Source of the DNA: Mobula hypostoma
Taxonomy: Eukaryota
Length of the DNA stretch: 64,000 bases
Direction: 5' to 3'
Assembly (NCBI RefSeq): GCF_963921235.1
Contig: NC_086108.1
Coordinates: 59,274,001-59,338,000 of the forward strand
Shown here: piece by piece, positions 20,053-64,000 of the stretch
How positions within the stretch are numbered: position 1 is the stretch's first letter
Layout: each line of letters begins with the position of its first letter
Notes under the pieces: generated by a model
Databases searched by the model: none
The model's input: only the letters and a program-made list of their open reading frames with translations
What the model was told of the DNA's origin: nothing
Position numbers and translations under genes: made by a program

Positions 20053-20123
20053 GTTCTGATGAAAGGCCCTTGACTTAAAACGTTGACCTTGTTTCTCTTC
20101 CCACACATGCAGCCTGGCCTGCT
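20053..20123 (+). mobile_element. Degenerate PLE 3' end with decayed hammerhead motif
   Basis: ttctgatgaaaggcccttgacttaaaacgttgac...atgcagcctggcctgct resembles the intact family copies. Confidence 0.55.
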
Positions 20124-26524: not shown

Positions 26525-26616
26525 AAGGGTCTCGGCCCAAAACATTCATTGTTTACTCTTTTCCATAGATGCTGCCTGGGCTTCTGAGTTCCTCCAACAT
26601 TTTGTGATTTGTTGCT
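26525..26616 (+). mobile_element. Short PLE-derived insertion (older subfamily)
   Basis: aagggtctcggcccaaaac...catagatgctgcctgg...gttgct; AAGGAAAAGG repeated at 26519-26528 and 26617-26626. Confidence 0.7.
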
Positions 26617-27705
26617 AAGGAAAAGGACTTTGCAGTTCAAGACCAATTGGCCTCTTAATCAAATAAAATTAGTTTTACAATTATGCTAAAATTTTAGAAG
26701 GATGGTCTGAAAAGCACATCAGGCTTGAAATTCCACATTGAAACCATGTCAATCCTGATTAAAAATAAATCTATGTGGCAGTGCCTATTCAAGATGCTGC
26801 AAACACAAGATCCCAGAATATGTATGAAAATGCTGTTTGTCTCCATAGCACTGAAGGCACACTACTATTTATTGAATCAATACAAACCTCCTGCCTGCAG
26901 CATCATGCCTAACTAAAACTGTCATTTATCACTTGGAATCAATCAAATATAACGATTGGTAGGGGGCACAACTGAAAATTAGATAGGAAGATATTTAGCA
27001 ACTCATAAAAGAATTTGAGGAAGAAATTTATGCAGATGACTCAAAAATAGCATAGTCCTTTGAAAATTAGCTCAACCCAGAGTTTAGGGTATTGCTTACA
27101 TTTCTTTAAGTTTTCACACATCAGGAAATTCAACTCCATGATCTTCAATGGGATTTTCATTCTTTCTCACAATTTTCCTTTGGTATGAAACTTGAATAAA
27201 TGATGTCAATAAGAGTGCAAACCACAAGAATTGCCTCCAATAAGATTTTCAATTCAACTGGTGTGAAAAATGATAGATTTTTTACCCTATGAATAACCAC
27301 GTTTTAATACCCCTCATCCTTGGAACATTTTAACTATAAGGAAGTTGAGGATTATGGAGACAAAGTGGAAACATAGTATTGATCCAAGACGTGAGCTTAT
27401 TGAATGGTCTAGAGGCTGTTTGTCTGACTCATGTTTCTTACTTCCTTACGAAATTCCCCTGTACTTGAAAGTGTTTAGCTTGCATTGTAGTATATCCTTT
27501 TAAGACCATGCTGCAAAACTTGCAACTGAGATACAATATGCTGACAACCACCAGGCACTGTAATGCATTAATTGGCATTACTGAACTGAAATTAATAATA
27601 TCAAATTTAGGGAAAGCTGCAACACAGCTTTTACAGGTGTTGAACAGTTTTTGTTGTTGTATTAGAAAACTTGCATTGGAAAAATAATCAATTCTTGATC
27701 TCCAT

Positions 27706-27800
27706 GCAACACACACAAAATGCTGAAGAAACAGCAGGCCAGGCAGCATCTATGAAAAAAAGTATAGTCGACGTTTTGGGCCGAAACCCTTCAGCAGGAC
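27706..27800 (-). mobile_element. Short PLE-derived insertion with mutated hammerhead core
   Basis: The minus strand reads gtcctgctgaagggtttcggcccaaaacgtcgact...gatgctgcctggcctgctg...tgtgtgttgc. Confidence 0.75.
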
Positions 27801-28459: not shown

Positions 28460-29745
28460 CTGTCCACACCCTCAACAATTTTTCCTTCAGCTCCCCCCAC
28501 TTTCTCCAGACTCAAGGTGTAGCCATGGCATCTCATGGGCCCCAGCTATGCCTGCCTTTTCATTGGCTACGTAGAACTGTCTATGTTCCAAGCCTTGTGC
28601 GGCAATGCTCCCCCAACTCTTCCTCCACTGCATTGGTACTGCTTCTTGCAGCCATGCTGAGATCATCGATTTCAACAACTTTGCCTCCAACTCCCATCCT
28701 GCCCTTGAATTCACTTGCTCTATTTCTGAAACCTTGCTCCCCTTTCTCGATCTCCCTTTCTCTATTGATGGACAAACTGTTGACTGGCAACTTTTATAAA
28801 CCTACGGATTCTCACAGTTATCTTGACTATACCTCTTCCCACCCTGACTTCTATAAAAATGCTATTCCCTTTTTCTCAGTTCCTTTGTCTCCACCACACC
28901 TGTTCCCAGAATGCAGCTTTCCTTTTCAGGATATCAGATATATCCCATTCTTCAAGGAACAGGGTTTCCCTTCCCCTACTATTGACGCTGCCCTCACCTA
29001 CATCTTCTCCATTTCGTGAACATCCACATCCCAAAGAGCCTTTCCAGGTGAGGCAATGCTTGACCTGTGAACCTTCTGGGGTTGTCTATTGGGTTCGGTG
29101 CTGCTGATACGACATCCTCTACATCAGTGAGAACTGTCATAAATTGGGGACACTGCTTCATCAATCACCTCCTCTGCATCTGCCAAAAACAGAACTTCCC
29201 TGTGGCCAAGCATTTTAATTCTGATTCCCATTTCCACTGTGACATGTTGGTCCATGGTCTCTTGTGCGATGAAGAGGTCACCCTCAGGGTGGAGGAGCAA
29301 CACCATATGTATTCCATCTGAGTAGTCTCCTACCTGATGCATAAATATTGATTTCTTCTTCCAGAAAAAATAATCCCTTCCCCTCTCCTCTTTTTCTATT
29401 CCCCACTCTGGCCTCTTACCTCTTCTCACCTGCTTATCACTTTCTCCTGGGCTCCCTCCTCCTTCTCCTTCTCCTATGGTCCACTCACCTCTCTTATCAG
29501 ATTCCTCCCTCTCCAGCCTTTTACTTTTCCTGCCCACCTGGCTTCACCTATCACCTTCTAGTCATCCTCCCTCCCCTCTCCCACCTTTTTATTCTGGTGC
29601 CTTTTCTCTTCCTTTCCTGTTCTGAAGAAGGGCCCCGACCCAAAAAGTCGACTGTTTATTCATTTCCATAGATGCTTCCTGACCTGCTGTGTTCCTCCAG
29701 CATTTTACATATTGCTTTGGATTGCCAGTATTTGCAGAATTTCTC
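28460..29745 (+). mobile_element. Decayed Penelope-like element (RT plus GIY-YIG remnant)
   Basis: Frameshifted motifs FLQTQGVAM..GP, LPFLDL, FYKPTDSHSYLDYTSSHP and GIY-YIG-like VVYWVRC...LYISE. These are followed by a pyrimidine-rich UTR, a degenerate hammerhead (ctgaagaagggccccgacccaaaaagtcgact, ~29622-29653) and the family 3' end. Confidence 0.85.
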
Positions 29746-31775: not shown

Positions 31776-32384
31776 AATTTGCATTTTTCTCTGTGTATTT
31801 GTAGGAGATTTTCCAACCACTTTACCAGAGCAGGTTTTTATTTCCAACTATAAGTAATACAATTTTCTTGTTTCAAATTGTTATTCCAATTACACCAATC
31901 AAAAGGGAATTTTCTAGATTTCTTCACTGCAATTTAGACTTAGAAAATGCAGAATAGTATTAGAGGGGATAAGACAGGGGTGTCTGCAGTTCATATGTTA
32001 TGAGTTTTGCCCAGTAACCTTTGAATTTGGAGTGCAAAGCAGGCCTACCTTCATTGCACCTGTTTTCAAGCAATCATGAAACAATGGTCAAGGTGCACTG
32101 TAGCTCCATCATGTTCGTACGATGCTTAATCACACCGCCACTTTTATTTTCCATTCAACTTATACTTGCTCAGCATTATACCTACACCTCCCTTCAAAAT
32201 CTTCAAAATATTTTGAATCTAATGTTCAGTTTTCAAAAGACTGACACAGCATATTCTCCTACATGAAGACTTATATTTTTCAATAGCAATATAATGTTAA
32301 GTCTGAGCTGTTCAAAGGTTAGCTGATAGCTACTATTTTGGGATAATTATTCAAATAACCTGCATCTGATTAAATGTAGTTACC

Positions 32385-34170
32385 TATGCATATGTGAAGA
32401 ACAGAAAGATGACAAGAATGAAGGTGGGGATGCTAAAGGATAAAGAAGGCAATATGTGCCTGGAAGCGGAGAAGGTTGGGGAGGTCCTAAATGAATACTT
32501 TGCTTCAGTATTCACAAGTGAAAAGGACCTTGATAAGGGTGAGGTCAAAATAGAACAGGCTTGTGTGCTGGACAATGTGGAGATTAAGGAAGAAGAAGTG
32601 TTGAATCTTCTTAAAAACATCAAGATTGATAAATCCTCAGGGTCGGACATGATTTACCCCAGGTTGCTGTGGGAAGTGAGAAAAGAGATTGCTGGAGCAG
32701 TAGCTATGATCTTTGAATCCTCTTTGGCTGCAGTGGAGGTGCCGGAGGATTGGAGAATGGCAAATGTAGTTCCCTTGTTTAAAAAAGGTAATAGGGAGAA
32801 TCCTGGGAAATATAGACTGGTGAGTCTTACATCGGTGATCTGCAAACTATTGGAAAGGATTCTTACAAATAGGATCTACGAGCACTTGGAGAAGTACAGT
32901 CTTCTCAAGCATAGTCAACATGGCTTTGTGAAGGGAAGGTTGTGCCTCATGAGCCTAATTGAGTTTGTTGAAGAGGTAACAAAAGAAATTGATGAGGGTC
33001 GGGTGGTAGATGTGGTCTACATGGATTTTAGCAAGGCATTTGACAAGGTCCCCCACGAGACACTCATCCAGAAAGTCATGAGGCATGGCATCAGTGGAAC
33101 CTTGGCTGGTTGGATAAAAAAATTGACTTAAAGGAAGAAAGCAGAGGGTAGTAGTGGAAGGAAAGTATTCTGCCTGGAGGTCGGTGACTAGTGGAGTGCC
33201 ACAAGGATCTGTCCTGGGACCCCTGCTCTTTGTGAAAGAGGCGGAAGGATGGGTGAGTAAGCTTGCGGACGACACCAAGATTGGAGGAGTCGTGCATGGA
33301 GCTGTAGGTTGTCGAAGGTTACAAGAGGATATAGACAGGATGCAGAGTTGGACAGAAAAGTGGCAGATGGAGTTCAATCCGGATAAGTGTGAGGTGATGC
33401 ATTTTGGAAGGACAAATCAGAAGGCTGAGTACCGGGTTAATGGTTGGATACTTAAGAGCGTGGATGAACAGAGGGACCTTGGGGATCAAATCCGTACATC
33501 CCTCAAGGTCGCTGCACAGGTTGATAGGATAGCTAAGAAGGCCTATGGAATGCTAGACTTCATTAATAGGGGGATTGAGTTCAAGAGTAGAGAGGTCGTG
33601 TTGCAACTTTACAAATCTCTGGTGAGACCACACTTATAGTATTGTGTTCAGTTCTGGTCACCTTATTATAGGAAAGCTGTGGAAGCTATGGAGAGGGTGC
33701 AGAGGAGATTTACCAGGATGTTGCCTGGGTTGGAAAACAAGTCTTATGAGGCAAGGTTAGTAGAGCTGGGTCTTTTCTCTCGGAGCGTAGAAGGATGAGA
33801 GGGGACTAGATAGAGGTCTACAAGATTATGAGAGGCATAGATAGGGTGGATAGCCCGTACCTGTTTCTCAGGGTACAAACAGCAAACACTAGAGGGCATA
33901 TGTACAAAGTTAAGGGAGGGAAGTTCAGGGGAGACATCAGGGGTAAGTTTTTTTTACACAGAGCTTTGTGGGTGCCTGGAATGACTTGCCAGGGATGGTG
34001 GTGGTGGCTAAAACATTAGGGGTATTTAAGAGCCTCTTGGACAGGCACATGGATGAAAGAAAAATAGAGGGTTACGGGGTAGTGTGGGTTTAGTACTTTT
34101 TTAAAAGAATATATGGGTTGGCACAACATTGAGGGCCGAAGGGCCTGTACTGTGCTGTAGTAGTCTACTG
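32385..34170 (+). mobile_element. 5'-truncated CR1 LINE, frameshifted
   Basis: ORFs 32394-33131 and 33154-33639 with YMDFSKAFDKV, GVPQGSVLGP and LADDTK; CR1 tail near 34130-34170. Confidence 0.9.
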
Positions 34171-36403: not shown

Positions 36404-36665
36404 CTGTGGTTAAAACCTACTTGTTTTCTATTCTATTTTGGGAAGGAAACTTACTACCATGTCTGGTCTGCCTGATATCATTTCAAATGGCCAATTTATC
36501 ACATATAACGGTGACAGTTCAAGGCCATCAGCATCATTTCAAGAAAAATAAAGTGACAGATAAATTTAAACAACAGGAATTCTGCAGATGCTGGAAATTC
36601 AAGCAACACACATCAAAGTTGCTGGTGAACGCAGCAGGCCAAGCAGCATCTATAGGAAGAGGCGC

Positions 36666-36701
36666 AGTCGACGTTTCAGGCCGAGACCCTTCGTCAGGAC
36701 T
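36666..36701 (-). ncRNA. Minimal type I hammerhead ribozyme motif
   Basis: The minus strand reads AGUC CUGACGA AGGGUCUCGGCCU GAAA CGUC GACU. Confidence 0.8.
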
Positions 36702-37045
36702 AACTGAAGGAAGAATGAGTAAGGGATTTGAAAGCTGGAGGGGGAGGGGGAGATGCAAAATGATAGGAGAAGACAGGAGGGGGAGGGATAGAGCCGAGAG
36801 CTGGACAGGTGATAGGCAAAAGGGGATACGAGAGGATCATGGGACAGGAGGTCCGGGAAGAAAGACGGGGGGGGGGAGTGTCTTTCTTCCCGGACCTCCT
36901 GTCCCATGATCCTCTCGTATCCCCTTTTGCCTATCACCTGTCCAGCTCTCCGGCTCTATCCCTCCCCCTCCTGTCTTCTCCTATCATTTTGCATCTCCCC
37001 CTCCCCCTCCAGCTTTCAAATCCCTTACTCATTCTTCCTTCAGTT

Positions 37046-37081
37046 AGTCCTGACGAAGGGTCTCGGCCCGAAACGTCGACT
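37046..37081 (+). ncRNA. Minimal type I hammerhead ribozyme motif
   Basis: AGUC (stem I), CUGACGA core, A, GGGU-CUCG-GCCC (stem II), GAAA, CGUC, GACU. Helix III is the palindrome ACGU; predicted cleavage after C37077. Confidence 0.82.
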
Positions 37082-39732
37082 GCGCCTCTTCCTATAGATG
37101 CTGCTTGGCCTGCTGCGTTCACCAGCAACTTTGATGTGTGTTGACAGATAAATTTTTCCCTTTCCAATAATGTCCAATGGCTGAGAGTAAATTAAAGCAA
37201 AATGATCGGTAATTTGTTGGGAGGGGGATGCTTGCAACTTGATTATGAATAATTGCCTGAATTCAGTGCATAGAGCTGATATTAGATCTGATATCATGTT
37301 TACGGTAACATCTGCTATATTAATAAATAGCAGGTGCTGAAATCTGTAACTCTGTTAGCTTTACTGCAAACATGCTATTTATAATAACTTAATTTTGCTG
37401 AAATAAAATTAGGGGATATTCAGTCGTGTTGCTGAGAGCAGCCTGCATTAATGGTGTGTGGCCTTGTGATAGGAATGGGTGGCTTGCAGCAGTCTTTAAC
37501 TTTGCTGTAAGAATCCCATATCCAATGCACGCATTACCAAAGTGGCATACACATAGTACTGGCAAATCCAGGCCTTGCATTTAAAAATAGTACATACAGA
37601 ACTTTCCTTAGCAAAGTGCCACTCTGTGGTAAGGGGGATTGTGAAAAAAGTGGTGGGAAAATTCATGGAGTTGATGCTGATTGGCAAGAAGATGTTCAGG
37701 GAGAAGGTCAGGGAATTGGAGAGAAGTGCAAAGTGAGGTGGGAGAAGATTCGTGTGGGTTTGAGGATGCTGCTGTGAGGACAAATGTGATTAACAAACTC
37801 AGAAAATGATTTGGGAGTCTGGATTATGGTGTGAAGATATGAATAAAGAATATGGATCATTGGGCTACCTCCAGCACATCCTTAGGTTGTGTTGCCTGTT
37901 AATGCAAATAATGCATTTCACTGTATGTTTTAGTGTACATGTGACAAATAAATGAATCAAAATCTAAACCTGGACTGTAAGCTAGATAAACAATACTAAG
38001 GAAAATTGGAAAGGGAAGCCAAAGAACAGCTTAGGGAGGGGGTGGAGATAAAGTGGTGAAATAAGAAACAGAACTTGCTAGGAAGAGACTCAAAGGGCTA
38101 TGGAGGACACTGGCAGTGAATAGAAAGTACTAGTGGGGTGAGGAAGAGAAAACAGGTTGAAGTTATCACTCAGAGTATGAGGATAAAACAAGAATTGACC
38201 TCAATGACTCTTGAAGAATCTTCGCCATTGGATCCCATAACCTCATTCACAGTAGGGATAAAATTATATTTGCAAGTATACAATATTGCACTACAACGTA
38301 GAGTTTCTTGGCTAAAAAGTTATAAAATCCCTGGGAAATGGCTAACAAAAAGAAAGAAGGAGGATGGTCTTTGGAAGAGTGGAAACCAGGAAAAATTAAG
38401 TGACAAAAATAATGAACATTTAAGAAAACAGGACAAAAACTAGGATATGAAGTAACAAGATGGGGATAATGATCATGCAACTAAGAATAGGTGAACTATT
38501 GTACCATTTGTATTCTGAAAATAAAAGGGAAATGTTTTCACTGAATTTAAACATTGATTTGGGAAAGCTTTACTATAAATAGTCTAAATGAGAGGAGAAA
38601 AGCTGTTTCTCAGGTTTAGGTAGAATTTCACTCAGACAATGTAAGAGGCTGAATAGAGTATGACAGCGAATTAAAATGATAGACCAGAAGTTTAAGAGGT
38701 ATTTCATGGGGGTGCTTATTTGATCTGTATGTGGTCTGTCTTACAGAAAGGAAACTACATTATGATCAGCAGTTTACTAAGAATATTAAAATAAAAGAAT
38801 TACAAACTTCTATTTTATCCTGAAACAGCATTTGGGGTCTTTGACAGTCAGCATAGAGGTAACAGGACAGATATTACATGGGCCATTTTCCGCTATGCAG
38901 ATAGAAGCCAATGTTGTGGCTGTACTGAAACAACTCGGCCAAGGGAACATCCTCTTTGTGGCTTTCTTGTGGTTTATTACAATTACATAGACCATTTCAG
39001 AGGATAGAAGACAACCAGACTGCTGTGAGCCTGGAGTCATGGTTAGGCCAGACCAGGTAAAGATGGTAAACTTCCACCCCTACAAGACATTAGTCAACAT
39101 TCACAACAACCAACTATGATTTTCATGGCTGCCATTAGACTTTTTAATTATGTTTGAATAACTTTTAATAACTTAGGAATCCGAATTTTTCACTATCTGC
39201 CATGGTGAGATTCCCAGAATTTTCCTCTGGCTATCTAGATTATTAATCCAGAGATAATATCACTTGCCATCAGATCTCCAATTATCAGTGATGCAATGAG
39301 CACTATTTCATCAAAGTTTCTTTTTTCATTCTGACAAATGGATGCCTGTACTTGGAATCTAATATTTTATTCTTTCACTTTGTCAAGCAACCCATGGTAT
39401 CTATATACTCTCAATTTCTGAATTACTGGTGAGTAACAACCACAATCCCTCAATTTTAATTGACATTTTACGCAAGCATGTTGCTGTTAGATAGTTTTCT
39501 TGAGTTATTTTTTGCTGTACTCTAACGTCACTTCTGTGTTTTTAAAATACACATTTGAAAAACTTTCTTTAAACTGTAAAATTTATTCCATTTGAAGGGT
39601 AGACATATAGTGACTTTTTTACAAGAGGTTTCTATTGTTGCCTAGTTGTTTTAATTTTTACATATTTTTGAAGCAGAGGATCAATACCTTGCTCGATACA
39701 GAATCTGCAGTCTTTTACCTATCCTCACTACC

Positions 39733-42355
39733 AGATCAGAATCAGAATCAAGTTTATTATCACTGGCATGTGATGTGAAATTTGTTAATTTAGCAGCAGC
39801 AGTTCAATGCAATACATAGTAAAGAAGAGAAAAGAAAGTAAAAATAATAAATAAATAAATAAGTAAATAAATAGATTACAGTATGCGTATATTGAAAACG
39901 TGCAATAAACAGAAATATTATATATTTAAAAAAGTGAAGTAGTGTTCAAGGGTTCAATGTCCATTTAGGAATTGAATAGCAGAAGGGAAGAAACTGTTCC
40001 TGAATCACTGAGTGTGTGTCTTCAAGCTTCTATACCTCCTACCTGATGGTAACAGTGAAAAAAGGGCAGACCTTGGGTGCTGGAGGTCCTTAATAATGGA
40101 TACTGCCTTACTGAGACACTGTTCCCTGAAGATGTCCTGGGGACTTTGTAGGCTAGTGTCCAAGATGAAGCTGACTAGATTTCCAAACCTCTGCAGCTTC
40201 TATCGGTCCTGTGCAGTAGCCTCCGCGCACCCCCCCCCCGACCCCCATACGAGACAGTGATGCAGCCTGTCTGAATGCTCTCCACGGTACATCTCTTCAA
40301 ACTCCTAATGAAGTATAGCTACTGTCTTGCCTTCTTTACAACTACATCGATATGTTGGGACCAGGTTAGACCCTCAGAGATCTTGACACCTAGGAAATTG
40401 AAGCTGCTTACTCTCTCCATTTCTGATCCCTCTATGAGGATTAGCATGTGTTCCTTCGTCTTACCCTTCCTGAAGTCCACAATCAGCTCTTTCATCATAC
40501 TGACATCGAGTGCCAGGTTGTTGCTGCAGCACCACTCCACTAGTTGGCATATCTCACTCCTGTACACCCTCTCATCACCACCTGAGGTTCTACCAACAGT
40601 GGTCGTATCATCAGCAAATATATAGATGGTACTTGTGCTATCCTAGCCACACAGTCATATGTATAGAGAGAGTAGAGCTGTGGGCTAAGCACACACCCCT
40701 GAGGTGCACCAGTGTTGATCGTCAGTGAGGAGGAGATGTTATCACCAATACACACAGATTGTGGTTTTCCAGTTAGGAAGTTGAGGATCCAATTGCAGAG
40801 GGAGGTACAGATGCCCAGGTTCTGCAACTTCTCAATCAGGACTGTGGGAATGATAGTATTAAATGCTGAGTTATAGTTGATGAACAGCATCCTGACGTAG
40901 GTGTTTGTGTTGTCCAGGTGGTCTAAAGCCGTGTGGAGAGCCATTGAGATTGCATCTGCCATTGACCTATTGTGGCGATAGGAAAATTGCAATGGGTCCA
41001 GGTCCCTGCTGCGGCAGGAGTTTAGTCTAGTCATGACCAACCTCTCAAAGCATTTCATCACTGTCAATGTGAGTGCTACCAGGTGATAGTCATTAAGGCA
41101 GCTCACATTATTCTTCTTAGGCCCTGGTATAATTGTTGCCTTTTTGAAGCAAGTGGGAACTTCCGCCCATAGCAATGAGAAATTGAAACTGCCCTTGAAT
41201 ACACCCACTAGTTGGTTGGCACAGGTTTTCAAAGCCTTACCAGATACTCTATCGGGACCTTTCGCCTTGCGAGGTTTCACTCTCTTTAAAGACAGCCTAA
41301 CATCGGCTTCTGAGACATAGATCACAGGGTCATCAGGTGTAGCAGGGATCTTCACAGCTGTAGTTATATTCTCCCTTTCAAAGCGGGCATAGAAGGCATT
41401 GAGTTCATCTGGTAGTGAAGCATCGCTGCCATTCATGCTATTGGGTTTCGCTTTGTAAAAAGCAATGTCTTGCAAACCCTGCCAGAGTTGCCATGCATCT
41501 GATGTCACCTCCAACCTCATTCGAAATTGTCTCTTTGCCCTTGAAATAGCCCTCTGCAAATCATACCTGGTTTTCTGGTACAGGCCTGGGTCGTCAGACT
41601 TGAATGTCACAGATCTAGTCTTCAGCGGACGACGTGCCTCCTGGTTCATCCATGACTTTTGGTTTGGGAATGTACAGTAAGTCTTTGTAGGTACACACTC
41701 ATCCACATAGGTTTTAATGAAGTCGGTAACAACTGCAGCATACTCATCCAGGTTCAAAGATGAATCCTTGTATACAGACGAGTCCACCGATTCAAAGCAG
41801 TCCTGTCGGCACTCCTGTCCTTCCCTTGTCCAAACCTTCTTGGTCCTCACTACTGGTGCTGCAGTCTTCATTCTCTGCCTATATTCAGGGAGTAGAAATA
41901 CATCCTTCCTAAAGTGAGGGCGTGGAATAGCACGGTTGTTGATGGTGGTGTAGCAATGCTAGTGTGTTGTTTCCTCTGGTATTGCAAGTGATCTGTTGAT
42001 GGTAATTGCTTAGTGATTTTTTCAGACTGACCTGGTCAAAATCTCATAAAATGATGGTGAAGGCATTAGGCTGTGCTGTTCCGTGCATGTTGATCCCATT
42101 ACTCAGATCGTCTAAAGCCTGCTTGACTTTGGCCTGAGGTAGAATGTATACTGCTACCAAAATGACCCTGGAGAACTCTGGTGGTAGGTAAAAGGTATGG
42201 CACTTAACTGCTAGATGTTCCAGGTCTGGTGAGCAGAATTGGGACAGCACTGATATATTAGTACACCAAGAAGAGTTGATCATGAGGCATACTCATCCAC
42301 CTCTGCTTTTGATAGACTCTATAGATCTATCCTGAAGGTGTATAGTAAACGTGTC
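39733..42355 (-). mobile_element. Rex1/Babar LINE, long decayed copy
   Basis: Endonuclease-like piece (42044-42283, VAVYILPQA), RT ORF 40540-41871, and an (ATCAGA)n tail at the left end. Confidence 0.9.
40540..41871 (-). pseudogene. Rex1/Babar RT ORF fragment (443 aa)
   Basis: [39 protein letters not shown] and GAPQGCVLSP; frameshift just before the catalytic ADD. Confidence 0.85.
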
Positions 42356-45300
42356 GATGTAGAGTTTGGGCACAGCACATGAGATTCCTTTTCTGCTGGC
42401 AACTGTCGTCATCAGGAGCTTGATGTTGAAGAGGGATTGTTGCTTCTGGTTACTAGGTTGAACATGGCTGTGTCCTTATTAGAATCTAATAAGAATGAGG
42501 TTGTGGTATAATCTTTGTTTTTACTTTTCAGCCATTTGATTCTTATTTGGAGAAGAAAGAGAACCATGGATTTACAATCTTGTAAGTAAATGTGTTGTGA
42601 ATAACATTGCCCTTCCTTCTATGAAGAATTTTCTCAATGACATTAACTAATTATCTGGTCCACAATAGAGCATAGTTCTGTGCATTCATCTCATGTTTTT
42701 AACACTAAGGGGGTCATACTTTCCTCATGGTCATTTTGTTTCCTTAATGTTGTTGTGTTTTAATGTTCATGAACCATATTTCCAGGAGAACGTGATGACT
42801 GCTTTCCTTCAGGTTTACTCTTCTGTGGAATTCAAGTCAAGCTTTGTCAAAATTGCTGAGGATTTTGTAGTAATGTTTTTCACTCCAATACCGAAGTTGA
42901 ATAGTGCTAATTCCACTTCAAGAAAATTTTCAAACTGAGATTAACTATTAGTAAGCATGTGAAACATTATGTACTGCTTTCAGTCCAGTTAATTTAATTT
43001 TTATTTCTCTGTACTCAAATCTTTACGGTATATTGAATACAGTCTCAGCACTGCCAAAACACAGATGGTTTATTCCTTCTTCTTGTTTCTCAACCGTATG
43101 TGGCTATCAATGTAAAAGATGATTTCAAAGAGATTTTCAACCACTAAATTAATAAATCTTCAACTAGGGATACACTTACAATTGTTGCCCTATTTGCAAG
43201 TTATGAAGATTTAATGTAATATATTCTGATTTGGTCACTACAAATCAGATCTGGGTTGTATTCTTCCTTTGTCACTGAAACCACTAAGATATACTGTTTG
43301 GTTTAGATAATTTGCTGAATTGAACTCCCTGGTCATAGACTGACTTCTGTCTTACTTACCTCACTTGTCATTCCAAAGAGATCATAGAGTACAGTCTATC
43401 CCCTGTGGAAGATTTGTAATTTCAACCTGAAATTTAGAATCCAGTAACAGGTTTTAATAAGCATATAAATGAATTCATGCTTCTTGTTTTCTTATAGAAA
43501 GCAATAAATTCCAATTTAATGGTGACATTCCTTCTGCTTTTTCAAAAAGTCCTCGGAAACACCTGGATATAGTAATTTCCCGGTTTACATATGCTTACTA
43601 GACCTGTCAATTGCCAGAAGAAATGCTTGTCCTCTGGTGCATAAAGGGAATTAAGCTCCTTTTTACTTTATCCTGTAGCAAGTGTTACTCAGTCCTCAGA
43701 ACTCAATACTCCAAATATACAGATAAATCAGGCGCTTGCAAAGGCAACAGAACAATTGTACAATTCCCGCAGTGAATTTGAGTGGTTGTTATTCACCAAC
43801 AGAAGGCACTGAATTTAATTGGTTCATATTCAGAAATCAGGATTATTCCCAAAGTCATTACTTGAGGGATATTAACATCTTATCCTGTGTTTTTTTTTTC
43901 ATTTTGATTAACTGGACCTGTCCAGTGACTGCTGTGAAAAGGCAGCTGACAACAAGGTAAAGACCTTGTGACAGCATGGAAAGGCGGCTGACAGGAGGGA
44001 ATAGACCCCAATGGGACTGTCGTGGGCTTGCTACACATGGCGGCAGCCCTCAACGCTGTTTCAGCATGTTGGAGACACCCGTTAATGGCTATGAAAAGGC
44101 AACAAAGGAAGGTGTTCCTAGAGCCTGCAAGAGTGGCTCAATGACTGATAACATGGCGACAGACCTAGGAACAGAATCTACCATGAATAAAGAGAGCACT
44201 GCACGAGACCACCAAAACACCAGCAGCAGTAGCGGGACACAAGCGTCAAGTGGAAGAAAGTAACATCAGAAAAGGGTTGAAGATCCATCAAGGGAGGACA
44301 GCGTACTTGAGGGAGCAGAGACAGGGGCCTCACATTGACCAATACTTCTTGCAAAGTCAGTCAACTGAGTTGAGTGAAGTGCAGCAACCGGACACAAACC
44401 TAAGTTTGCAGAGCATCAGCATCCCTGTCACTGAGGAAGTTAGCACAGAATTCCCAGCTGAGGGACCCACCCAACCACCAACACCTCTTAAAGAGAGGAA
44501 AATCAAAGGGCGTAGACAGCTCATGCAGAGTCCCAAAACTGCTGATAAGAGAAAATAGGAAACCATCAACAACTACTTGATGAAAAATTTGGAGCAATTA
44601 AAAGGAACAGCAGAAAAGAAGTTGGATGCAAATGGGAGACATCATCTACTGCTGGATGGTCAGATGGTCTGCATCCCAGAGTGCTTAAGAAAGTAGCCCA
44701 AGAAATAGTGGATGCATTAGTGATAATTTTTCAAAACTCTTTAGATTCTGGACTAGTTCCTGAGGATTGGAGGGTAGCTAATGTAACCCCACTTTTTAAA
44801 AAAGGAGGGAGAGTGAAACAGGGGAATTATAGACCGGTAAGCCTGACATCGGTGGTGGGGAAAATGTTAGAGTCAGTTATCAAAGATGTGATAACAGCAC
44901 ATTTGGAAAGCGGTGAAATGATCGGACAAAGTCAGCATGGATTTGTGAAAGGAAAATCATGTCTGACGAACCTCATAGAATTTTTTGAGGATGTAACTAG
45001 TAGAATGGATAGGGGAGAACCAGTGGATGTGGTATATTTGGATTTTCAAAAGGCTTTTGACAAGGTCCCACACAGGAGATTAGTGTGCAAACTTAAAGCA
45101 CACGGTATTGGGGGTATGGTATTGATGTGGATAGAAAATTGGTTGGCAGACAGGAAGCAAAGAATGGGAATAAACGGGACCTTTTCAGAATGGCATGCAG
45201 TGACTAGTGGGGTACCGCAAGGCTCAGGGCTGGGACCCCAGTTGTTTACAATATATATTAGTGACTTAGACGAGGGAATTAAATGCAGCATCTCCAAGTT

Positions 45301-45481
45301 TGTGGATGACACGAAGCTGGGTGGCAGTGTTAGCTGTGAGAAGGATGCTAAGAGGATGCAGGGTGAATTGGATAGGTTAGGTAAGTGGACAAATTCATGG
45401 CAGATGCAATTTAATGTGGATAAATGTGAGGTTATCCACTTTGGTGGCAAGAACAGGAAAACAGGTTTTTATCTGAATGGT

Positions 45482-45934
45482 CACACGAGGAATTCTGCAG
45501 ATGCTGGAAATTCAAGCAACGCACATCAAAGTTGCTGGTGAACGCAGCAGGCCAGGCAGCATCTCTAGGAAGAGGAACAGTTGACATTTCAGGCTGAGAC
45601 CCTTCGTCAGGACTAACTGAAGAAAGAGCTAGTAAGAGATTTAAAAGTGGGAGGGGGAGGGGGATCTCCAAAATGATAGAAGAAGACAGGAGGGGGAGGG
45701 ATGAAGCCAAGAGTTGGACAGGTGATTGGCAAAAGAGGTATGAGAGGATCATGGGACAGGAGGCCCAGGGAGAATGAAAAGGGGGAAGGGGGGAAGCCCA
45801 GAGGATGGGCACCCCTCTGACTATACCCCTTGCCCATCCTTTCTTCAGTTAGTCCTGACGAAGGGTCTCGGCCTGAAACGTCGACTGTACCTCTTCCTAG
45901 AGATGCTGCCTGGCCTGCTGCGTTCACCAGCAAA
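45482..45934. mobile_element. Fold-back PLE-derived insertion nested in CR1
   Basis: TSD TTATCTGAATGGT at 45469-45481 and 45935-45947; inverted arms at ~45532-45626 and 45840-45933. Confidence 0.92.
45851..45886 (+). ncRNA. Minimal type I hammerhead ribozyme motif
   Basis: AGUC CUGACGA AGGGUCUCGGCCU GAAA CGUC GACU. The mirror copy on the minus strand (~45579-45614) has CpG-type mutations (GAAAUGUC AACU). Confidence 0.8.
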
Positions 45935-48900
45935 TTATCTGAATGGTGGCCGATTAGGAAAAGTGGAGGTGCAATGAGACCTGGGTGTCATTGTACACCA
46001 GTCATTGAAAGTGGGCATGCAGGTACAGCAGGCAGTGAAAAAGGTGAATGGTATGCTGGCATTCATAGCAAAAGGATTCGAGTACGTGAGCAGGGTGGTA
46101 CAGTACTACTGCATTTGTACAAGGACTTGGTGAGACCACACCTAGAATATTGTGTGCAATTTTGGTCCCCTAATCTGAGGAAAGACATTCTTGCCATAGA
46201 GGGAGTATAAAGAAGGTTCACCAGATTGATTCCTGGGATGGCAGGACTTTCATATGATGAAAAACTGGATTGACTAAGCTTATACCCTCTGGAATTTAGA
46301 AGATTGAGGGGGGATCTGATTGAAACATATAAAATTCTAAAGGGATTGGACAGGCTAGATGCAGGAAGATTGTTCCCAATGTTGGGGAAGTCCAGAATGA
46401 GGGGTCACAGTTTGAGGATAAAGGGGAAGCCTTTTAGGATCGAGATGAGGAAAAACTTCTTCACACAGAGAGTGGTGAATCTGTGGAATTCTCTGCCACA
46501 GGAAACAGTTGAGGCCAGTTCATTGGCTATATTTAAGAGGGAGTTAGATATGGCCCTTGTGACTAAAGGGATCGGGGGTATGGAGAGAAAGCAGGTACAG
46601 GGTTCTGAGTTGGATGATCAGCCATGATCATACTGAATGGCGGTGCAGGCTCGAAGGGCCGAATGGCCTACTCCTGCACCTATGTTCTATGTTTCTATGA
46701 TTCTATGCTATAGGGAAGTGCAGTAGGAGTCAGTACAAGGAAGAGTGGAAAGACATCAGTACCAAAATAAAGTCAAGGAGTTATCAGGAAATTAAGTGAC
46801 TGGTTCGAGAATGGAGACAGATAAGGAAACAGTGGAAGAAAGCCCCAGATAGTGAGAGGGAAGGCCTCAAGCAACTTCAAGCAGACATCAAGAGCCGGCT
46901 GACAAAGTTGTGAACAGTTAAGAACCAAAAGAATCTGCGCAGAAAGAAAGAACAAGCAAGAACACAGTTCTACAGATATCCTTTTAATTTCATTAAAGGA
47001 GTCTTCACACCAGAAAAAAGTGGAACCTTGAAAACAGCAAAGCTGGAACAAGAAGAGCACCTGGAAAAGATTCACAATGACTTGAGAAGGCAGGAACATA
47101 TGATCCTTCCTTCCGACATCTCGCCAATTCAGCTCCCCCACCCACCACCTGGATTTTGATCCTCCAAAATGGAGAGAAATGGAGAAGGCAGTCCGATGGC
47201 AAAAGCAGCATCTGCTCAGAGACCTAATGGGGGTACCATATAGGCCTTATAACAACGCACTGGATGTCTTGTTGTTTCTCTGGAGGCTCATGAGGATAGT
47301 GCGGCAGAGGTGAATAACACTCAAAATGTGGCAAAGGGCTGGTGGTGTCCTGATTCCAGAAGAAAAGGATGCAGAAAACGTCAGTCAGTTTTGACTATTC
47401 TGCCTTCTGAACATCAAGGGGAAAATCTTCTTTACTGTAATAGCACAGAGGCTGGCCAGCTACCTGGAGAGAAACAAATACTTTGATACATCTGTATAGA
47501 AAGCTGGAATTCCAGGGTTTTCCGGGTGTTTGGAACATACAAGCATGATATGGCACCAGATCCAAGCAGCTAGGAAGGACAAAAGAAATCTCTGTGTGAT
47601 CTTCCTGGACTTCGCCAATGCATTCGGCTCTATTCCCCATGCACTCTTCTGGGAAGCATTTGACTTCTTCCAGGTAGCAGAGTCTATCACAATGCTGGTA
47701 AAGTTGTACTTTCAAGACCGGCAATTGTGCTCCACAACAGCAGCAGATTTTACCACAACATGGCAGAGACTGGAAGAAGGCATTTTGGCAGGTTGCACTG
47801 TATCACCCCCGGCCTTCACAATGGCCATGGAGATCATCATCAGGGCTTCAAGATGGATGGTAGATGGTGAAAGATCAAGTGCTGGACTTCATCTTCCCCC
47901 TATTAGATCGTGTATGGAAGATTTAACAACATTAACCACTACTGCAGCATGCACCAAGAAACTACTTGGAAAGTTGCAGGAAAACATCAAGTGGGCCAGA
48001 ATGAAAATCAAACCCAGCAAGTCACGAAGCATCTCCATAGTCAAGGGAATGCTGAAAGACATTAAGTTCTTCCTCGGTGATGACGCCGGCCAGACTCGGT
48101 TCTCTGGTCCAATTCATTACAGAGCGTCTACATCATAGAACTCACAGACCTGTGGGAGGATTCAGAGGCTGAAGCATATGAGCGCAAGAGGCTACGCTTT
48201 AGATCTAGCAGCTGAAGCTCCGCGACAGGGCTGGAAAACCAAAGCTGGTCCTGTGGAAGTTGCTTGTAGGGGATTTATAGCCACATTCACCATCAACTTG
48301 CTGAAGGAGCTAGGGATCTATAGTCAGACTCTCCAGCAAACTACCAGAGCCACATCAGAGCTGCAGAAAGAAGCCTTGGATCAAGCGAAAAGATCTCGCC
48401 TGGGCTCTTTTTCATCCCACATCAAATTTAGGCTCAATTCTTTTCTGTCGTAAAATTACATCAGATGTGAATTCTTCAGTGCCTTAGGAAGGTGCTTAAA
48501 TTGGGAAACGGAGAAAATAAGTTTGGCTGAAGAACATGGCTAGAGGGTTGAAAGCAGCTTGGGTAGAAAAAGGACAAGTGGTAGGAAAAAGGCAGGAAAT
48601 AGAGCTGGAGGAAACATGGATGTGCTGGGGTCAGGACTATTAGAATCAGCAATACATTTAGATTAGCTGTTGGGAATTGGGCATGCAGTTTGACCACAGT
48701 CCAAAGCAGGCAGCAGGATTAAGATACTAGCAGTGTTAGGGTGGTATGGTAAAGGCAGCAGGGTTATATATTAAGCATAACCTTTAAGGAAGATCCACCC
48801 CTACTTGACACAGGACAACTTGGACACAAATCAGCATACGCTGGTTCCCTCTAACACCTCAACTCTTTAGTTAAGATATGCTTCTGTATAAATCAGCAGT

Positions 48901-57579: not shown

Positions 57580-58663
57580 TATTTGTTTTTTTTTAAACCT
57601 GGTTAAATTTAATCACATCTTTGCAACTCAAAATCAGATGGAACTATATTTTTGTTACCCTATTGGCACTTTCATTCAAGATATGACAGGTTTATTTTTG
57701 AATTTTTAGAATCTCAGTTAGCCCACAACATGTTTACGAATGCAGATAAATAGCAGAAATCCTCCACGAGCCAAAAAGTCCTTTTGTACTGTATCTCTGA
57801 ATGGAAAGAAAGCCAATATCATTTTTGAAGAAATGAAAATAAGATCAGAAGTAAACTTTAGCAATGTGCTGTGCAGGAGGAACAACAAGCAGAACAGCTA
57901 GGTAATTGAATATATAACAAAACAATGTGAATGACATGGCATTTACACAGCCCTGTACTGCATTTAAAGAAAATCATTCAAACCAACAGGTCAATCAACA
58001 TTTGTGTTCTGTATGAGTTTCCACCTGTGCAGCTTCATAATACATTAATAATACTGTCAGCTCTGTATGAGCAGGCACTTACCAGTCTCCACCCAGGTAA
58101 CAGAAGTTACATGCCACTCATTTCCAACTCATCACCTGCAGCCTATTTAAACCTAGCTCTTATCCGCAATCCTTCTCCACTCATACAAACTGGCCAGCCT
58201 CAAACAGATGCTCCCAGCCTTCAGTTAACTTATTGCCTTGTCATGTTAAGTATCTGTTCTCTCTTATTTTGTGGCCCCTTGTCACTTGTTTATTATTAAA
58301 GTTATCATTCTCTGTTGGGATGTGGACCACAGATTACAAATGAGAAAAGAAAAGGCAATGTCAAAGGGGAAAAGTTATGATATCATGGGAGTTTTCAACA
58401 TACAGGTCGATTGGGAAAATCAATTACGAAATGAATCTCAAGAGAGTGAGTGTGTTGAATGTCTATGAGATGGCTTTTTAGAGCAGTTTGTCATTGAGCC
58501 TACTGGGAGATCAGCTATACTGGATTGTGTGTTATGTAATGAACCAAAGGTGATTAAGGACCTTAAGGTAAAAGAACCCCTCGGAGACAGTGATCACAAT
58601 ATGTTTTAGTTCAAAGTTGCTGGTGAACGCAGCAGGCCAGGCAGCATCTATAGGAAGAGGCGC

Positions 58664-58699
58664 AGTCGACGTTTCAGGCCGAGACCCTTCGTCAGGACT
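58664..58699 (-). ncRNA. Minimal type I hammerhead ribozyme motif
   Basis: Exact mirror of 58700-58735. Confidence 0.8.
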
Positions 58700-58735
58700 A
58701 GTCCTGACGAAGGGTCTCGGCCTGAAACGTCGACT
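58700..58735 (+). ncRNA. Minimal type I hammerhead ribozyme motif
   Basis: AGUC CUGACGA AGGGUCUCGGCCU GAAA CGUC GACU; predicted cleavage after C58731. Confidence 0.82.
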
Positions 58736-61700
58736 GCGCCTCTTCCTATAGATGCTGCCTGGCCTGCTGCGTTCACCAGCAACTTTGATGTATGTTGCTT
58801 GAATTTCCAGCATCTGCAGAATTCCTGTTGTTTATGTTTTAGTTCAACTTGGTTTTGTTGGGAGAAAGTAAAATCTGATGTAGCAATACTTCAGTGGAGT
58901 AAAGGAAATTACAGCGGTATGAGAGAAGAGTTGGCCAAAGTAAATTGGAAAGAGATGCTGGTAGGGATGACAACAGACCAGCAATGGTGTGAGTTTCTGG
59001 GAAAAACTGAGGAAGATGCAGGATAGATGTATTGCAAAAATGAAGAAATACCCAAATGGCAAAACAGTACAACTATGGCTAACAAGAGAAGTGAATGCTA
59101 ATGTAAAATCAAAAGAGAGGGTATACAACAACACAAAAATTAGTGGGAAGCCAGAGGGTTGGGAAGCTTTTGAAACCCGACAGAGAGCAACTAAAAGAAT
59201 CATTAGAAGGGAAAAGATGAAATATGAAAGTAAGCTAGCAAATAATATCAAGGTGGATCATAAAAGTTTTTTTCCAATATGTTAAAAATAAAAGAGAAAT
59301 GAGAGTCAACATAGGACCACTAGAAAATGAGGAAGGAAAAATAATAGCATGGGACAAGGAGATGACTGATGAACTAAATAAGTATTATGTATCAGTCTTT
59401 AATGTGGAAGACACTAGAAGTGTGCCAAATGTTGAAGGATGTGAGGGAAGAGGAGTGAATGCAGTCACTATTGCAAGGGAGAAGATGCTTAAAAAACTGA
59501 AAGACCTAATGGTACGTAAGTCACCTGGATCAGACGAACAGCACCCTAGGGTTCTGAAAGAGGTAGTGGTAGAGATTGTAGAGGCATTTGTAATGATCTT
59601 TCAAAAATCATTGGAACCTGGCATGGTGCTAGGGGACTGGAAAATTGTAAATGTCACTGCACTCTTTAAGAAAGTAGGAAGGCAGCAGAAAGGAAATTAT
59701 AGACCAGTTAGCCTGACCTCGGTGGTTGGGAAGATGTTGCAGTCAATTGGTAAGGATGAGGTTATGGAGTACTTGATGACACAGGACAAGATAGGTCAAA
59801 GTTAGCATGGCTTATTACGGGAAAATCTTGTCTAACTAACCTGTTGGAATTCTTTGAGGAGATTACATGTAGGGTAGATAAAGGGGTTGTTGTGGAATTT
59901 CAGAAGGCCTTTCACAAGGTGCCACATGTGACGCAAAGTTAAGAGCCCATGGTATTACAGGAAAGGTACTGGCATGATTCGAGCATCGGCTAATTGATAG
60001 GAGGCAGTGAGTGGATATAAAAGGATCCTTTTCTGGTTGGCTGCCAGTGCTTAGTGGTGTTCTGCAGGGGTTGGTGTTGGGACCACCTCTTTTTATGTTG
60101 TATATCAATGATTTCAATGATAGGATAGATAGCTTTGTTGCCAAGTTTGCAGATGATCTGAAGATTTGTGGAGGGGCAGGTAGTTTTGAGGAAATAGGTA
60201 GCTGCAGTTGACTTAGACAGATTAGGAGAATAGGCAAGAGAGTGGCAAACGAAACACAGTGTTGGAAAATGCATGGAAAATACTACTTTGATAGCAGAAA
60301 TACATATGCAAACTATTTTCTAAATGGGGAAATAATCCAAAATTCTGAGATACAAATGGACTCGGAAGTCCCTGTGCAAAACACCCTAAAGGTTAACATG
60401 CAGGCAACTGGTGGTGAGGAAGCCAAATGCAATGTTAGCATTCATTTCAAAATGTCTAGAATACATAAGCAGGGATGTGATACTGAGGCTTTATAAGACA
60501 CTGGTGAGACCTCACTTTGAGTATTGTGAACAGTTTTGGGATCCTCATCTCAGAAAAGATGTGCTGGCATTGGAGAGTGTAGGGTCCAGAGGAGGTTCAC
60601 AAGGATGATTTCAGGAGCAAAAGGAACATACGAGGAACATTTGATAGTTCTGGGTCTGTACTCGCTGGAATTTAGAAGGATGAGGGAGGTCTCATTGAAA
60701 CCTTTTGAATGTTGAAAGGCTAGACAGAGTAAGTGTGTACAGGATGTTTCCCATGGAGGAGATGTCTGGGACAAAAGAGCGCAGCCTCAGGATAGAGGGG
60801 CATCCATTTAAAACAGAGATGTGGAGAAATTTCTTTAACTAGAGGGTGGAGAATTTGTGGAATTTATTACCATAGGCAGCTGTGGAGGCCAGGTCATTGG
60901 GTGTATTTAAAGCAGAACTTGATAGGTTCTCGATTGGACACAACATCAAAGGTCACAGGAAGAAGGCCGGAATGTGGGGCTGAGGAGGGGGAGAAAAGGA
61001 TCAGCCATGATTGAGTGGTACAGCAGACTCGATGGGGCAAGTAGCCTAATTCTACTCCTATGTCTTATGGTCTCAAGTTGCCTCTGCTGTCCTGCATCTG
61101 TGTCATTCTTCCTCTACATTTCCTGACAAATATGACCTTCTTTATCTCTACTGAACTTAACCGTTTCTTGGAAGCCCTCTGTTGTTTATCTAAATAAGTA
61201 TGTATGTGTTAATAAGCTTATTCCAAAATACCTTCATTAAAAAAAAGATAACTTTCCCCAATTCTTTATGCTTATTGTGACTACCTCATGTTATTATCAT
61301 AGTTTTTGGCTCTGAAACAAATGGAACCATATTTTTCAATGTCCCTTTCAAATTCAATTTTAAAAACTTCCAGAAGTAAATTCCCTACCTTACCTCCTTC
61401 AGTCTTTCCTGATCATAAATAAGTTCTCTATTCTGGTATTATCCTTGTTTTTTTGCCATTTTCTCCAGTATCTCTTAATGTTTTTGAAATAAGAAGACCA
61501 AAACCATGCCCGTTACTTAAGATGGAGTCTTACTTTAATTCTTACAACATTTAAAATAACTTTTGATTTTAAAATTTATTCCTCTAATGAGTTGCTGTGC
61601 TTTGTTGACATATCTTATTGTCTAATAATCATGTATCACAGCTTTCATGATTTGTTCTGACAAAGTATCTTCAGCTTGAAATGTCCCATAGATGTTGCCT

Positions 61701-64000
61701 AACTTGCAGACTGCTTCCCATGTTTTCTGTTTTTATTTTACCATTGGTACCCAGTGCCCCGTCCAAGCTTCCTAACTCCTCCTGTCAAAGGACACCATTT
61801 CAAATTACATTAATTTTAATATTTCTTGATTCATTCACAGGCTGTGGCGAGGGCTGACAAAGCCAGTGTTTATTTCCCATCACCAGTTGATCGAGAGGCA
61901 GCACAGTGAAAGCACAATAAGCTGCCTTCTTTAATTGCTGAACGGATCGTTCAGTGATGGATGGATTGGTAAAGATGAGATCAGGAAGGCATTTTCTCAT
62001 ATTGGTTCTTTCACTACCTGCCACAGGCCTGGAACGGTAGCTGTCTCTTTCAATATTTAGTCAGCTCAATCAGCACTGGTATTACTGAGCCACTGTTAGT
62101 GATGGATGTTCAAATCTATCACCCAGGGCTTCCTTCAACTGGTGTTCAATGTGAATCAATATTTGAAGGAAGGCAGTAAGTAATTTGTGTGCTTATTCTG
62201 CAACACTATTGATGTTTTTCTGTGATTTGTCACAGAAAACAACATTTTTAATAAATATCTTACTGTTAATCACTTTCCTTAACATTTAAAAAAAGATCGT
62301 CTCAAAACATAAAGAACAATTGCAGGGACTATAGTTTCTATTCAACATTTTTCCATTCTGATAGTCTAAATGCCATTCATATTGGCAACTGTAATAAACG
62401 TTATCTGTGGAGGTGCCATAAGCCCAGGTAGATAGCTTACATTTCATAAATGAAGCCCAAGGACCAATGTTAAGTTACTCTCAGGTCTCACATTTTGTTC
62501 ATGACAAGGGAATCACCAATAAACAAACTGCCTTCTCCAAGATTTCTTTCTTCTTATGTTCCCCTTTGTTATTTAATTGTTTTTTCTCTTTTACTCCTAT
62601 ATGTCCACTTCTAGATTGCCTGCAGGTTCTGGCTCTGCATAGCAATTATATTGAACCATCTCCCTGTCAACCATACTTGTATCTATGATGGGAAATTTTA
62701 ATTTATTTTAATTCCAAATGTTTTTGCTAATTTAGTCATCTTTCAATTGCATCTGTGTGCCAGAGTGCACCTCCATTTGGTATCACATTTTAAGGAGATG
62801 CCAGTAGCTCAGCTTTTAATCTGGCAAGGTTAAATTCTACTATTTAAATTCTACTATATAAAGCTATAAATTCTACCTAGAGTTCAAAGTAAATTTATTA
62901 TCAAAGTATATTTATATCACCAGATACTACCTTGAGATTCATTTTCTTTCATCCATTCACATTAGAACAGAGACATACAATAGGATCGATAACAAACTAC
63001 ACAGAAACAGTGCATGGGTGCACTTGGTAGATTTTTGAATAAATGGAACAATTGTTCTGGACAACTTCCAACGTAATAATAAATCAATAGCCCAACACCT
63101 AGGTCAAAAGATACCAAACATTGCATATCTGCATGTTAAAAATCTGCTGCCTGATCCTCGCCTTGTGAAATTAGATTTAGGAGAAAGCCACAGTCCCATT
63201 AAAAAGGCTCTGATAACATTCACTTACCATTGTTGTGGTGCTCATCTTACTTTGGCTAGCAATGGGGGAAAATAAGAAATTCATCATATGTTTGGGAGGG
63301 AAATACTTTCTGATACTTCCAGTGCTGAGAAAATGAGGGGGGGGGCAGCACGAGGAGGAAGAAAGGGTACCTGTATTATAGTGGGAGCAGTATGGAGCTT
63401 CCAATGTGATCGTATTGGGTTTGCTGACAGTGAAGTTCTAAACTCGAGTGAAGTACTTCATCCCTATCCAATATAGAAAGCCATGGGTATCCTCACTAAA
63501 GGGAAGTTATACTGCAGCTATCTACACTTCAAAGACTAGATCACTTTCCTGTTTTTCCTGTTTAGCTGCCAGTACTTACTATTCGAGTGTGGGGCCCCAC
63601 CCTCCCTAATAAGGAGGAGATATTTCCAGCTAGTGAAGTAATTTAAACACAATTTATTTATTTTTAGTGATACACATTTAAATATAGACCAAATACTTAA
63701 AATACATATAAATTTTATAGTGGTTTTCCATATTATAAAAGATTTCCAAATTACAAACTATTTCTAAAATACAAAGGGTTTCCAGGTACAATTCCTATAA
63801 GGTAAAACAACATGCCAATGATTTACAGATGAAAGAATCATCTGTCACTGAAATCAAAGGCAGAAGAATGGATTCTAGTTCACCTTGTCTTTCTGTCATT
63901 CTTCTTGTTATTCTTGGACCATTCCTAACAAGCCTGACTGCTCTCTTGTATTTATACTGTTTCTCTGCCACTTAGCAGACTTCACATGCATGATACCTTT

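Follow-up and report, generated by a model that had tools for sequence, protein, structure and literature searches.

A spacer-less palindromic Penelope-like end-repeat insertion centred at the edge of a hammerhead ribozyme motif in Mobula hypostoma

We analysed a 64,000-nt stretch of the Mobula hypostoma genome (contig NC_086108.1, positions 59,274,001 to 59,338,000; hereafter the window) and found a perfect palindrome with its axis at the edge of a hammerhead ribozyme motif. The feature is real in the assembly and belongs to a known kind; judged by its sequence, it is a truncated end-repeat of an endonuclease-containing (EN+) Penelope-like element (PLE), namely the 3′ end-repeat (pseudo-long terminal repeat, pLTR). 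The origin that we favour, with a probability of about 0.55, is a 5′-truncated head-to-head insertion in which two cDNAs, one from each nicked target strand, reached the same template end and were joined at the dinucleotide TA.

Anatomy of the palindrome

The two arms (58611–58699 and 58700–58788) are 89 nt each, 100% complementary and separated by no base, as an initial annotation of this DNA had described. The runner-up perfect palindrome in the window (spacer 0–3) had arms of only 9 nt, and chance would be expected to give about 0.01 zero-spacer palindromes with arms of at least 12 nt. The insertion is bounded by a target-site duplication (TSD), TATGTTTTAGTTCAA, whose copies at 58600–58614 and 58833–58847 are identical at 15/15 positions. 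Its last four nucleotides, TCAA, double as the outer end of the left arm, and 44 nt (58789–58832) are confined to the right arm. The 15-bp TSD with TCAA microhomology and the one-sided stretch of about 44 nt were likewise noticed initially, and a retro-insertion with a TSD and junction microhomology is supported. Each arm has retained six CpGs. Since the element natively has both axis bases, the junction may consist of a self-complementary overlap of 2 nt. The features of the locus are as follows, with 58700 counted as +1 of the element.

58600–58614, plus strand: left TSD copy, 15 bp, the final TCAA common to the TSD and the short arm
58611–58699, minus strand: short arm, element +1 to +89 (+85 minus the shared TCAA), without the tail
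58699–58700, no strand: symmetry axis between T and A, both native to the element (native TT-AGTC)
58700–58832, plus strand: long arm, element +1 to +133, 3′ end-repeat (pLTR) of a PLE
58789–58832, plus strand: the 44 nt found in the long arm only, including the PLE 'tail' (PMC8557442, PMC3846280, PMC11167929)
58833–58847, plus strand: right TSD copy, its first T also being the next native base of the element
58700–58735, plus strand: minimal type I hammerhead motif without helix III, with palindromic ACGU (definition from PMC4209133)
58664–58699, minus strand: minimal type I hammerhead motif from the motif scan, the mirror of the plus-strand motif

In the plus-strand motif, stem I is formed by AGTC (58700–58703) and GACT (58732–58735), and the core comprises CUGACGA (58704–58710), the stem II region (58711–58723) and GAAA (58724–58727), followed by CG and UC; self-cleavage is predicted between 58731 and 58732. 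The motif thus has the elements of the minimal hammerhead ribozyme (min-HHR) descriptor, namely CUGANGA, GAAA, NUH, helices I and II, a palindromic 15.2–16.2 and an extra base after position 9. Stem II opens with a G-U pair instead of G10.1-C11.1, a highly conserved and common feature that lies outside the descriptor (PMC4209133). The opening pair is G-C in the short arm of a sister copy (c2, below), and the G-U variant is the family majority in the public sequencing run X1, in which the C form accounts for 2.3M of 11.8M summed depth.

The mirrored motif on the minus strand bears out the initial description of one ribozyme motif per strand, back to back. The axis had also been placed exactly at the first base of stem I; this stands to within one base, given a fifth stem I pair, U-G, in the native context (predicted fold of 37000–37100) and a native T upstream of the hammerhead, which is also the base at 58699. 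Rfam gave no match at the gathering score anywhere in the window, hence no hammerhead, and the 28 sub-threshold matches near the palindrome were mostly microRNA (miRNA) hairpin models with no hammerhead among them; a miRNA identity was rejected, as these matches reflect the hairpin alone.

The element family

Similarity searches (BLAST and a profile from three window copies) recovered 15 end-repeat segments in the window, which were grouped into 11 insertions. The palindromic insertion itself has no open reading frame (ORF), and the combination of reverse transcriptase (RT) and GIY-YIG that characterizes these elements was found through one decayed relative only:

28462–29745, plus strand: decayed ORF-bearing relative with the C-terminal part of RT, a GIY-YIG region, the 3′ untranslated region (UTR) and the same end-repeat, which is about 70% like that of c2

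We assign the insertion to the PLEs because the RT and GIY-YIG ORF of this relative precedes the same end-repeat; a pyrimidine-rich UTR lies between the GIY-YIG region and the end-repeat. The decayed ORF (28462–29318) had nine protein matches with RT and GIY-YIG (best E 7e-18; 29–53% identity by tblastn), eight of which were ray or shark sequences. In one of these relatives, P0005, GIY-YIG scored E 8e-4, below the Pfam cut-off. P0005 and P0003 share a cysteine cluster ahead of the endonuclease, which we take to be reminiscent of the Neptune clade and treat as a lead only. Two host gene models that contain Penelope-like ORF sequence, P0005 and P0008, are labelled divergent protein kinase and nicotinamide riboside kinase; these labels probably reflect annotation absorbing element copies.

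The remaining PLE hallmarks, an inverted 5′-truncated head-to-head partner (also present in c2–c4), a TSD and a one-sided tail, were all found at the palindrome. The locus holds no tandem array, its two hammerhead motifs lying on opposite strands, and so lacks the head-to-tail repetition of hammerhead-bearing units, at least two in number, that defines a Non-LTR retrozyme. A scan of metagenome contigs and viral contigs for the element found 0 loci.

Sister copies in the window

Four two-armed, TSD-bounded insertions are present in the window: the palindrome, referred to as c1, in which both 5′ ends are at +1, and three others.

36554–37155, no strand: c2, two-armed, arms of about 264 bp (2 differences), 13-nt spacer, 14-bp TSD; 5′ ends at −178/−165, short arm to +98
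45469–45947, no strand: c3, two-armed, 13-bp TSD; long arm reaching −197, short arm to +83
4457–4600, no strand: c4, two-armed, 116-bp insertion, 14-bp TSD (1 mismatch); +23 to about +95 inverted, +90 to +133 direct

Beyond −197, the centre of c3 has a 19-nt spacer and a 9-nt inverted match, and its short arm jumps from about −190 to −11, an apparent loss of about 180 nt near the centre. Copy c3 lies inside a long interspersed element (LINE), and its empty site is visible in a paralogous LINE at about 1478–1491 (paralog 672–2247, 92–95% identical). The arms of c4 hold different parts of the element, giving it a twin-priming shape. The outer ends vary little: they lie at about +133 in the long arms and at +89, +98, +83 and about +95 in the short arms of c1–c4, with one-sided stretches of 44, 35, about 50 and about 38 nt, respectively.

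One-armed copies were also found. One (26519–26626) has a perfect 10-bp TSD, ends near +100 and has its 5′ end inside the ribozyme at +11; a mini copy with a TSD (9761–9879) likewise begins inside the ribozyme, at +18. No TSD was found at the 27.8-, 28.1- and 61.6-kb copies, and those at 20 and 29 kb had weak candidates only. In the old copies at 27703–27800 and 61650–61710, similarity starts at about +2 and −2, preceded by sequence foreign to the element. A 71% self-inverted stretch (19835–20028) lies upstream of an old hammerhead copy at 20052, without a clear TSD; the whole region (19835–20123) is possibly an old fold-back insertion.

The ribozyme edge as a probable break point

Contigs of four public runs were aligned on the long arm of c2, where +1 corresponds to 36701, and their loose ends were tallied; the positions listed are 24 of 1,097, six per run. 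Among these, loose ends at 36701 appeared in all four runs (275, 266, 271 and 47 contigs), with median lengths of 95, 143, 80 and 34 nt and agreements of 0.38, 0.39, 0.40 and 0.49. For reference, agreement was 0.43–0.44 at the true 3′ end (length 255) and 0.32–0.35 in random flanks (0.35 at n=47), and short piles taken as subfamily divergence had lengths of 11–41 and agreements of 0.49–0.96. Under a simple mixture, a single homologous class makes up about 20–35% of the 36701 pile. Run X18, possibly RNA, had loose ends at +100 (36602), and none of the listed positions lay at the cut site (+33) facing upstream.

The TSD-bounded copies of the window provide nine 5′ ends, four of which fall within −2 to +36 (p ~0.02 under a uniform null from −200 to +100, post hoc). 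This count omits the five copies without a clear TSD (27.8, 28.1, 61.6, 20 and 29 kb), two of which (27.8 and 61.6 kb) likewise start near +1. The first base of the ribozyme is probably a real hotspot of the family, a favoured break point, although subfamily divergence confounds the signal. We found no report of 5′ ends or inversion points at the 5′ edge of a hammerhead in the literature within reach, from which most subscription papers and the copy-end figure of PMC11167929 were missing, so that one may be in print.

A separate observation concerns joints within the c2 arm. At 36701->36667 and 36701->36665, contigs of all four runs step back 35–37 nt, from the first base of the ribozyme to just past its last, and some of these joints hold 3–4 letters between. 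We read the joints as head-to-tail doubled hammerhead modules, an arrangement that could give an active dimer.

Proposed origin: two cDNAs from two nicked strands

From the observed anatomy, TSD, family link and positions of all ends, we infer the following course of events. The element protein would nick both target strands about 15 nt apart. Priming would then occur from the bottom strand at the tail end (+133) and from the top strand at an inner start site (+85 to +89), aided by the TCAA match, and both cDNAs would extend toward the 5′ side of the RNA, possibly sharing a single RNA on which the rear cDNA would displace the one in front. Both would come to a halt on the first stem I base, probably since templates often end there, whether at a transcription start or where the RNA or cDNA was trimmed back to a folded or protein-bound ribozyme. 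The two 3′ ends would finally be joined through the TA overlap or bluntly and the gaps filled, leaving the insertion as a dead by-product.

Several observations argue for a short arm with its own priming event. The short arms of all four two-armed copies end between +83 and +98, with the long arms at about +133, and the chance that those of c1–c3 would all end within an 18-nt window is about 0.0004–0.001 (post hoc). The one-armed copy at 26519–26626 stops in the same region, near +100, where run X18 has loose ends too. The short arm of c4 carries sequence that is missing from the other arm and is therefore not its copy. In c3, 15/19 nucleotides of the central spacer are pyrimidines; this polarity matches the short arm and not a loop formed by the long cDNA. 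A pair of identical cDNAs can anneal in trans by TA at the axis, whereas a single strand must turn without a loop.

The two-cDNA reading leads to a more specific, tentative idea, which is possible rather than probable: the axis may show that the template RNA has a defined 5′ end on the first hammerhead base, set either by an initiator start overlapping stem I or by protection through the folded or protein-bound ribozyme, and two run-off cDNAs would result from that end. YYANWYY is the initiator consensus, and the native TTAGTCC fits it with A at +1 (58700). If the idea is true, run-off would account both for seamless palindromes and for the tiny one-armed copies that begin at +1. Other origins for such an end were rejected or disfavoured. 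A cleavage-defined end does not fit, as 32 nt separate the cut site from the axis; a 3′ splice site at +2, by analogy with the D. virilis intron that ends at helix I, is disfavoured by the eight YAG sites in the 312-nt arm; and a spliced template should give one shared upstream exon, whereas the loose ends at +1 are diverse. A placement of the inner stretch of c3 on the UTR of the old copy was left unused, since 1861/2000 shuffles scored equally.

A number of points weigh against these proposals. The 312-nt arm contains four initiator-type sites; the match at +1 is post hoc and is absent in the older copies at 29.6 kb and 20.05 kb, and splice-like YAG sites are equally common on the same strand. 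The 5′ end of the RNA at +1 is itself a prediction from sequence. In D. virilis Penelope, which has an internal TATA-less promoter (PMC2377424), transcription starts not at the ribozyme but 46 nt upstream of an intron of 75 nt whose end is at helix I (PMC2377424, PMC4209133). The c2 junction, with its 13-nt purine-rich spacer and GT/AC match, fits a snapped-back cDNA equally well, and the arm stops lie 0 nt (c1) and 13 nt (c2) apart, so that independent cDNAs need a shared template end or displacement. The loose-end pile at +1 in four runs speaks for an enrichment of break points at the ribozyme edge; within the window, however, the inversion lies at the edge in 1/4 two-armed copies (c1), and 1/9 TSD-bounded 5′ ends falls within one base of +1 (p ~0.09, same null). 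The loose-end consensus at 36701 is purine-rich and resembles the upstream tract of other subfamilies; part of the pile therefore marks the end of conservation, and several unrelated subfamilies would likewise lower the agreement. The counts at 36701 are, moreover, saturated and come from the 24 of 1,097 positions listed.

Alternative explanations

An unlikely but serious contender is a single first-strand cDNA that turned at TA with a loop of 0–2 nt, copied itself over 89 nt and annealed to the target by TCAA. It would explain at once why the arms show no differences and why they share their meeting point; such a fold-back with a native-polarity loop also suits c2, self-priming has already been proposed for PLE junction palindromes (PMC3846280), and a small hairpin primed by 2 bp (TA/AT) is known from an L1-associated inverted duplication (10.1101/2024.12.14.628481). 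The native sequence, however, offers TA only and no loop, whereas a yeast fold-back series used a 10-bp match and a 41-nt loop (PMC11724301). For a cDNA ending at +1, the predicted fold pairs the 3′ end with the stem I mirror sequence at p=0.61, a higher value than for any other of the 20 ends tested. This fold could protect the cDNA end from trimming; as a guide for snap-back it was rejected, because it predicts a 28-nt spacer and one ribozyme core and the locus shows a zero spacer and two cores. Nor can a snapped-back cDNA produce c4; it fits the spacer polarity of c3 poorly and leaves unexplained why short-arm ends coincide with the ends of one-armed copies. The initial proposal that RT stopped at the ribozyme structure and the cDNA then snapped back also fits poorly in its direction: RT runs 3′ to 5′ on the RNA and enters stem I at 58735, not 58700, and by 58700 stem I is already unwound, so a structural stall does not match. 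Very unlikely, in our judgement, is a secondary collapse in which a longer, c2-like inverted insertion symmetrically lost its centre and was perfected at TA. The family does contain longer near-palindromes (c2 and c3), and the short arm of c3 has apparently undergone a loss of this kind; against this, the arms and TSD show no decay, with their CpGs intact, the one-armed copies appear to have the same edge, and central deletions usually leave asymmetry.

The position of the axis could also be chance, the same two-armed insertion having formed by either route with no hotspot involved, a view that overlaps the others and that we hold to be improbable. The single c1 case among four two-armed copies (window p ~0.09) agrees with it, and subfamily divergence confounds the pile of loose ends. 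In three DNA-type runs of the same or other species, the loose ends at +1 are nevertheless long and low in agreement and resemble true insertion ends more than divergence points, and 4/9 window ends fall within −2 to +36 (p ~0.02, post hoc). Finally, perfect palindromes are a known class of sequencing artefact, and among 15 of 58 joints listed there was no strand change at 36701; contigs may collapse perfect palindromes, and the missing strand-change joint is therefore no evidence either way. A fold-back introduced during assembly or library preparation is very unlikely here, given an exact 15-bp TSD, a host LINE that resumes after the insertion, a tail on one arm only and three further copies of the same build; in addition, a contig of run X1 contains the flank–insertion junction of c2, although this run may come from the sample used for the assembly.

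Comparison with known systems

An inverted 5′-truncated partner and a one-sided tail of 30–40 bp are standard in PLEs (Craig 2021, PMC8557442), and palindromes at the inverted junction of rotifer PLEs were read as self-priming (Arkhipova 2013, PMC3846280). Pen2a_Av and Pen3a_Av of Adineta vaga show the same head-to-head repeats, junction palindrome, TSD and one-arm tail (PMC3846280, PMC8557442); the present insertion differs in having no ORF, just 133 + 89 nt of element and a zero spacer at the ribozyme edge, with a TSD of 15 bp against 8–10 bp and a one-sided stretch of 44 nt against 31 (30–40). The motifs share their core boxes, the extra base after position 9, the palindromic 15.2–16.2 and the lack of helix III with metazoan PLE min-HHRs (Cervera and De la Pena 2014, PMC4209133). 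Dual min-HHRs on opposite strands of PLEs lie 100–700 bp apart (PMC4209133), whereas here they abut (0 bp), and the first stem II pair is G-U here and G-C there. For the proposed mechanism, the nearest precedent is Poseidon of Anolis carolinensis, for which both strands were nicked and extended in vitro, with two RT start sites bracketing the tail and insertion without need for ribozyme cleavage (Frangieh 2024, PMC11167929). Poseidon primes without homology in vitro (PMC11167929), whereas the junctions here share 0–5 nt; as far as consulted, that study does not deal with inverted junctions or with 5′ ends at the ribozyme edge.

Every one of these traits, from inverted arms and a junction palindrome to a one-sided tail and hammerheads on opposite strands, has thus been published for PLEs. 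Twin-primed L1 insertions, as Ostertag and Kazazian reportedly described in 2001, arise from two cDNAs on opposite target strands joined head to head. L1 arms are different parts of one RNA, a shape seen in c4, whereas c1–c3 duplicate the same part. Non-LTR retrozymes are likewise non-coding, PLE-derived and equipped with a type I hammerhead, but they form dimer-capable head-to-tail arrays, in contrast to the head-to-head arrangement here with one motif per strand (bioRxiv 10.64898/2026.07.22.740005).

Host context and age

The insertion splits a decayed retrotransposon:

58300–60910, plus strand: host LINE-type retrotransposon, decayed, split by the insertion, limits approximate

Part of this host (59541–60910) is 66% like copies carrying RT (RVT_1), and its translation continues across the site once the insertion is excluded; we presume it to be CR1-like. 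No host gene was found in the window, where one of 73 non-LINE frames had a Pfam match, a zf-RVT, a search that short exons would escape. Five LINE RT frames (RVT_1) were seen, at 40540–41958 (minus), 44549–45541 (plus), 32370–33131 (plus), 8942–9775 (plus) and 47500–48138 (plus), and the window is mostly retroelement debris.

The long arms of c1 and c2 differ at 2/133 sites, which together with the six CpGs per arm places c1 in a young subfamily. That the insertion is very recent, as first suggested, goes beyond this, since 0/89 differences between the arms only limit their divergence to less than 3.3%. Contigs from runs X5 and X10 that cover the flank of c2 match as far as the TSD and then continue in other sequence, which suggests that the c2 site is empty in these organisms; the X5 organism is about 2% diverged (word share).

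Consequences and significance

The palindrome's ribozyme is without a tandem partner and would be buried in a duplex in any read-through RNA. The predicted fold of such an RNA is a single long duplex (−204.6 kcal/mol) with a probability of 0 for hammerhead stem I, in line with the initial view that double-stranded RNA would mask the ribozyme; the transcript itself is hypothetical because no host gene was found in the window. Taken singly, the insertion is an inert and tidy example of a published pattern, and its value is as a clue. How PLEs form inverted arms and what their hammerhead does are stated open questions (PMC8557442, PMC11167929). Considered with three sister copies, a junction with zero spacer where the ribozyme begins separates priming on two strands from snap-back, and the two-cDNA reading narrows the expected 5′ end of the RNA to a single base. 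What deserves to be retained is that the first base of the ribozyme is probably a break point of the family, and the idea of a template 5′ end there is testable; if it is true, the ribozyme would mark the start of the transposition template without cutting there.

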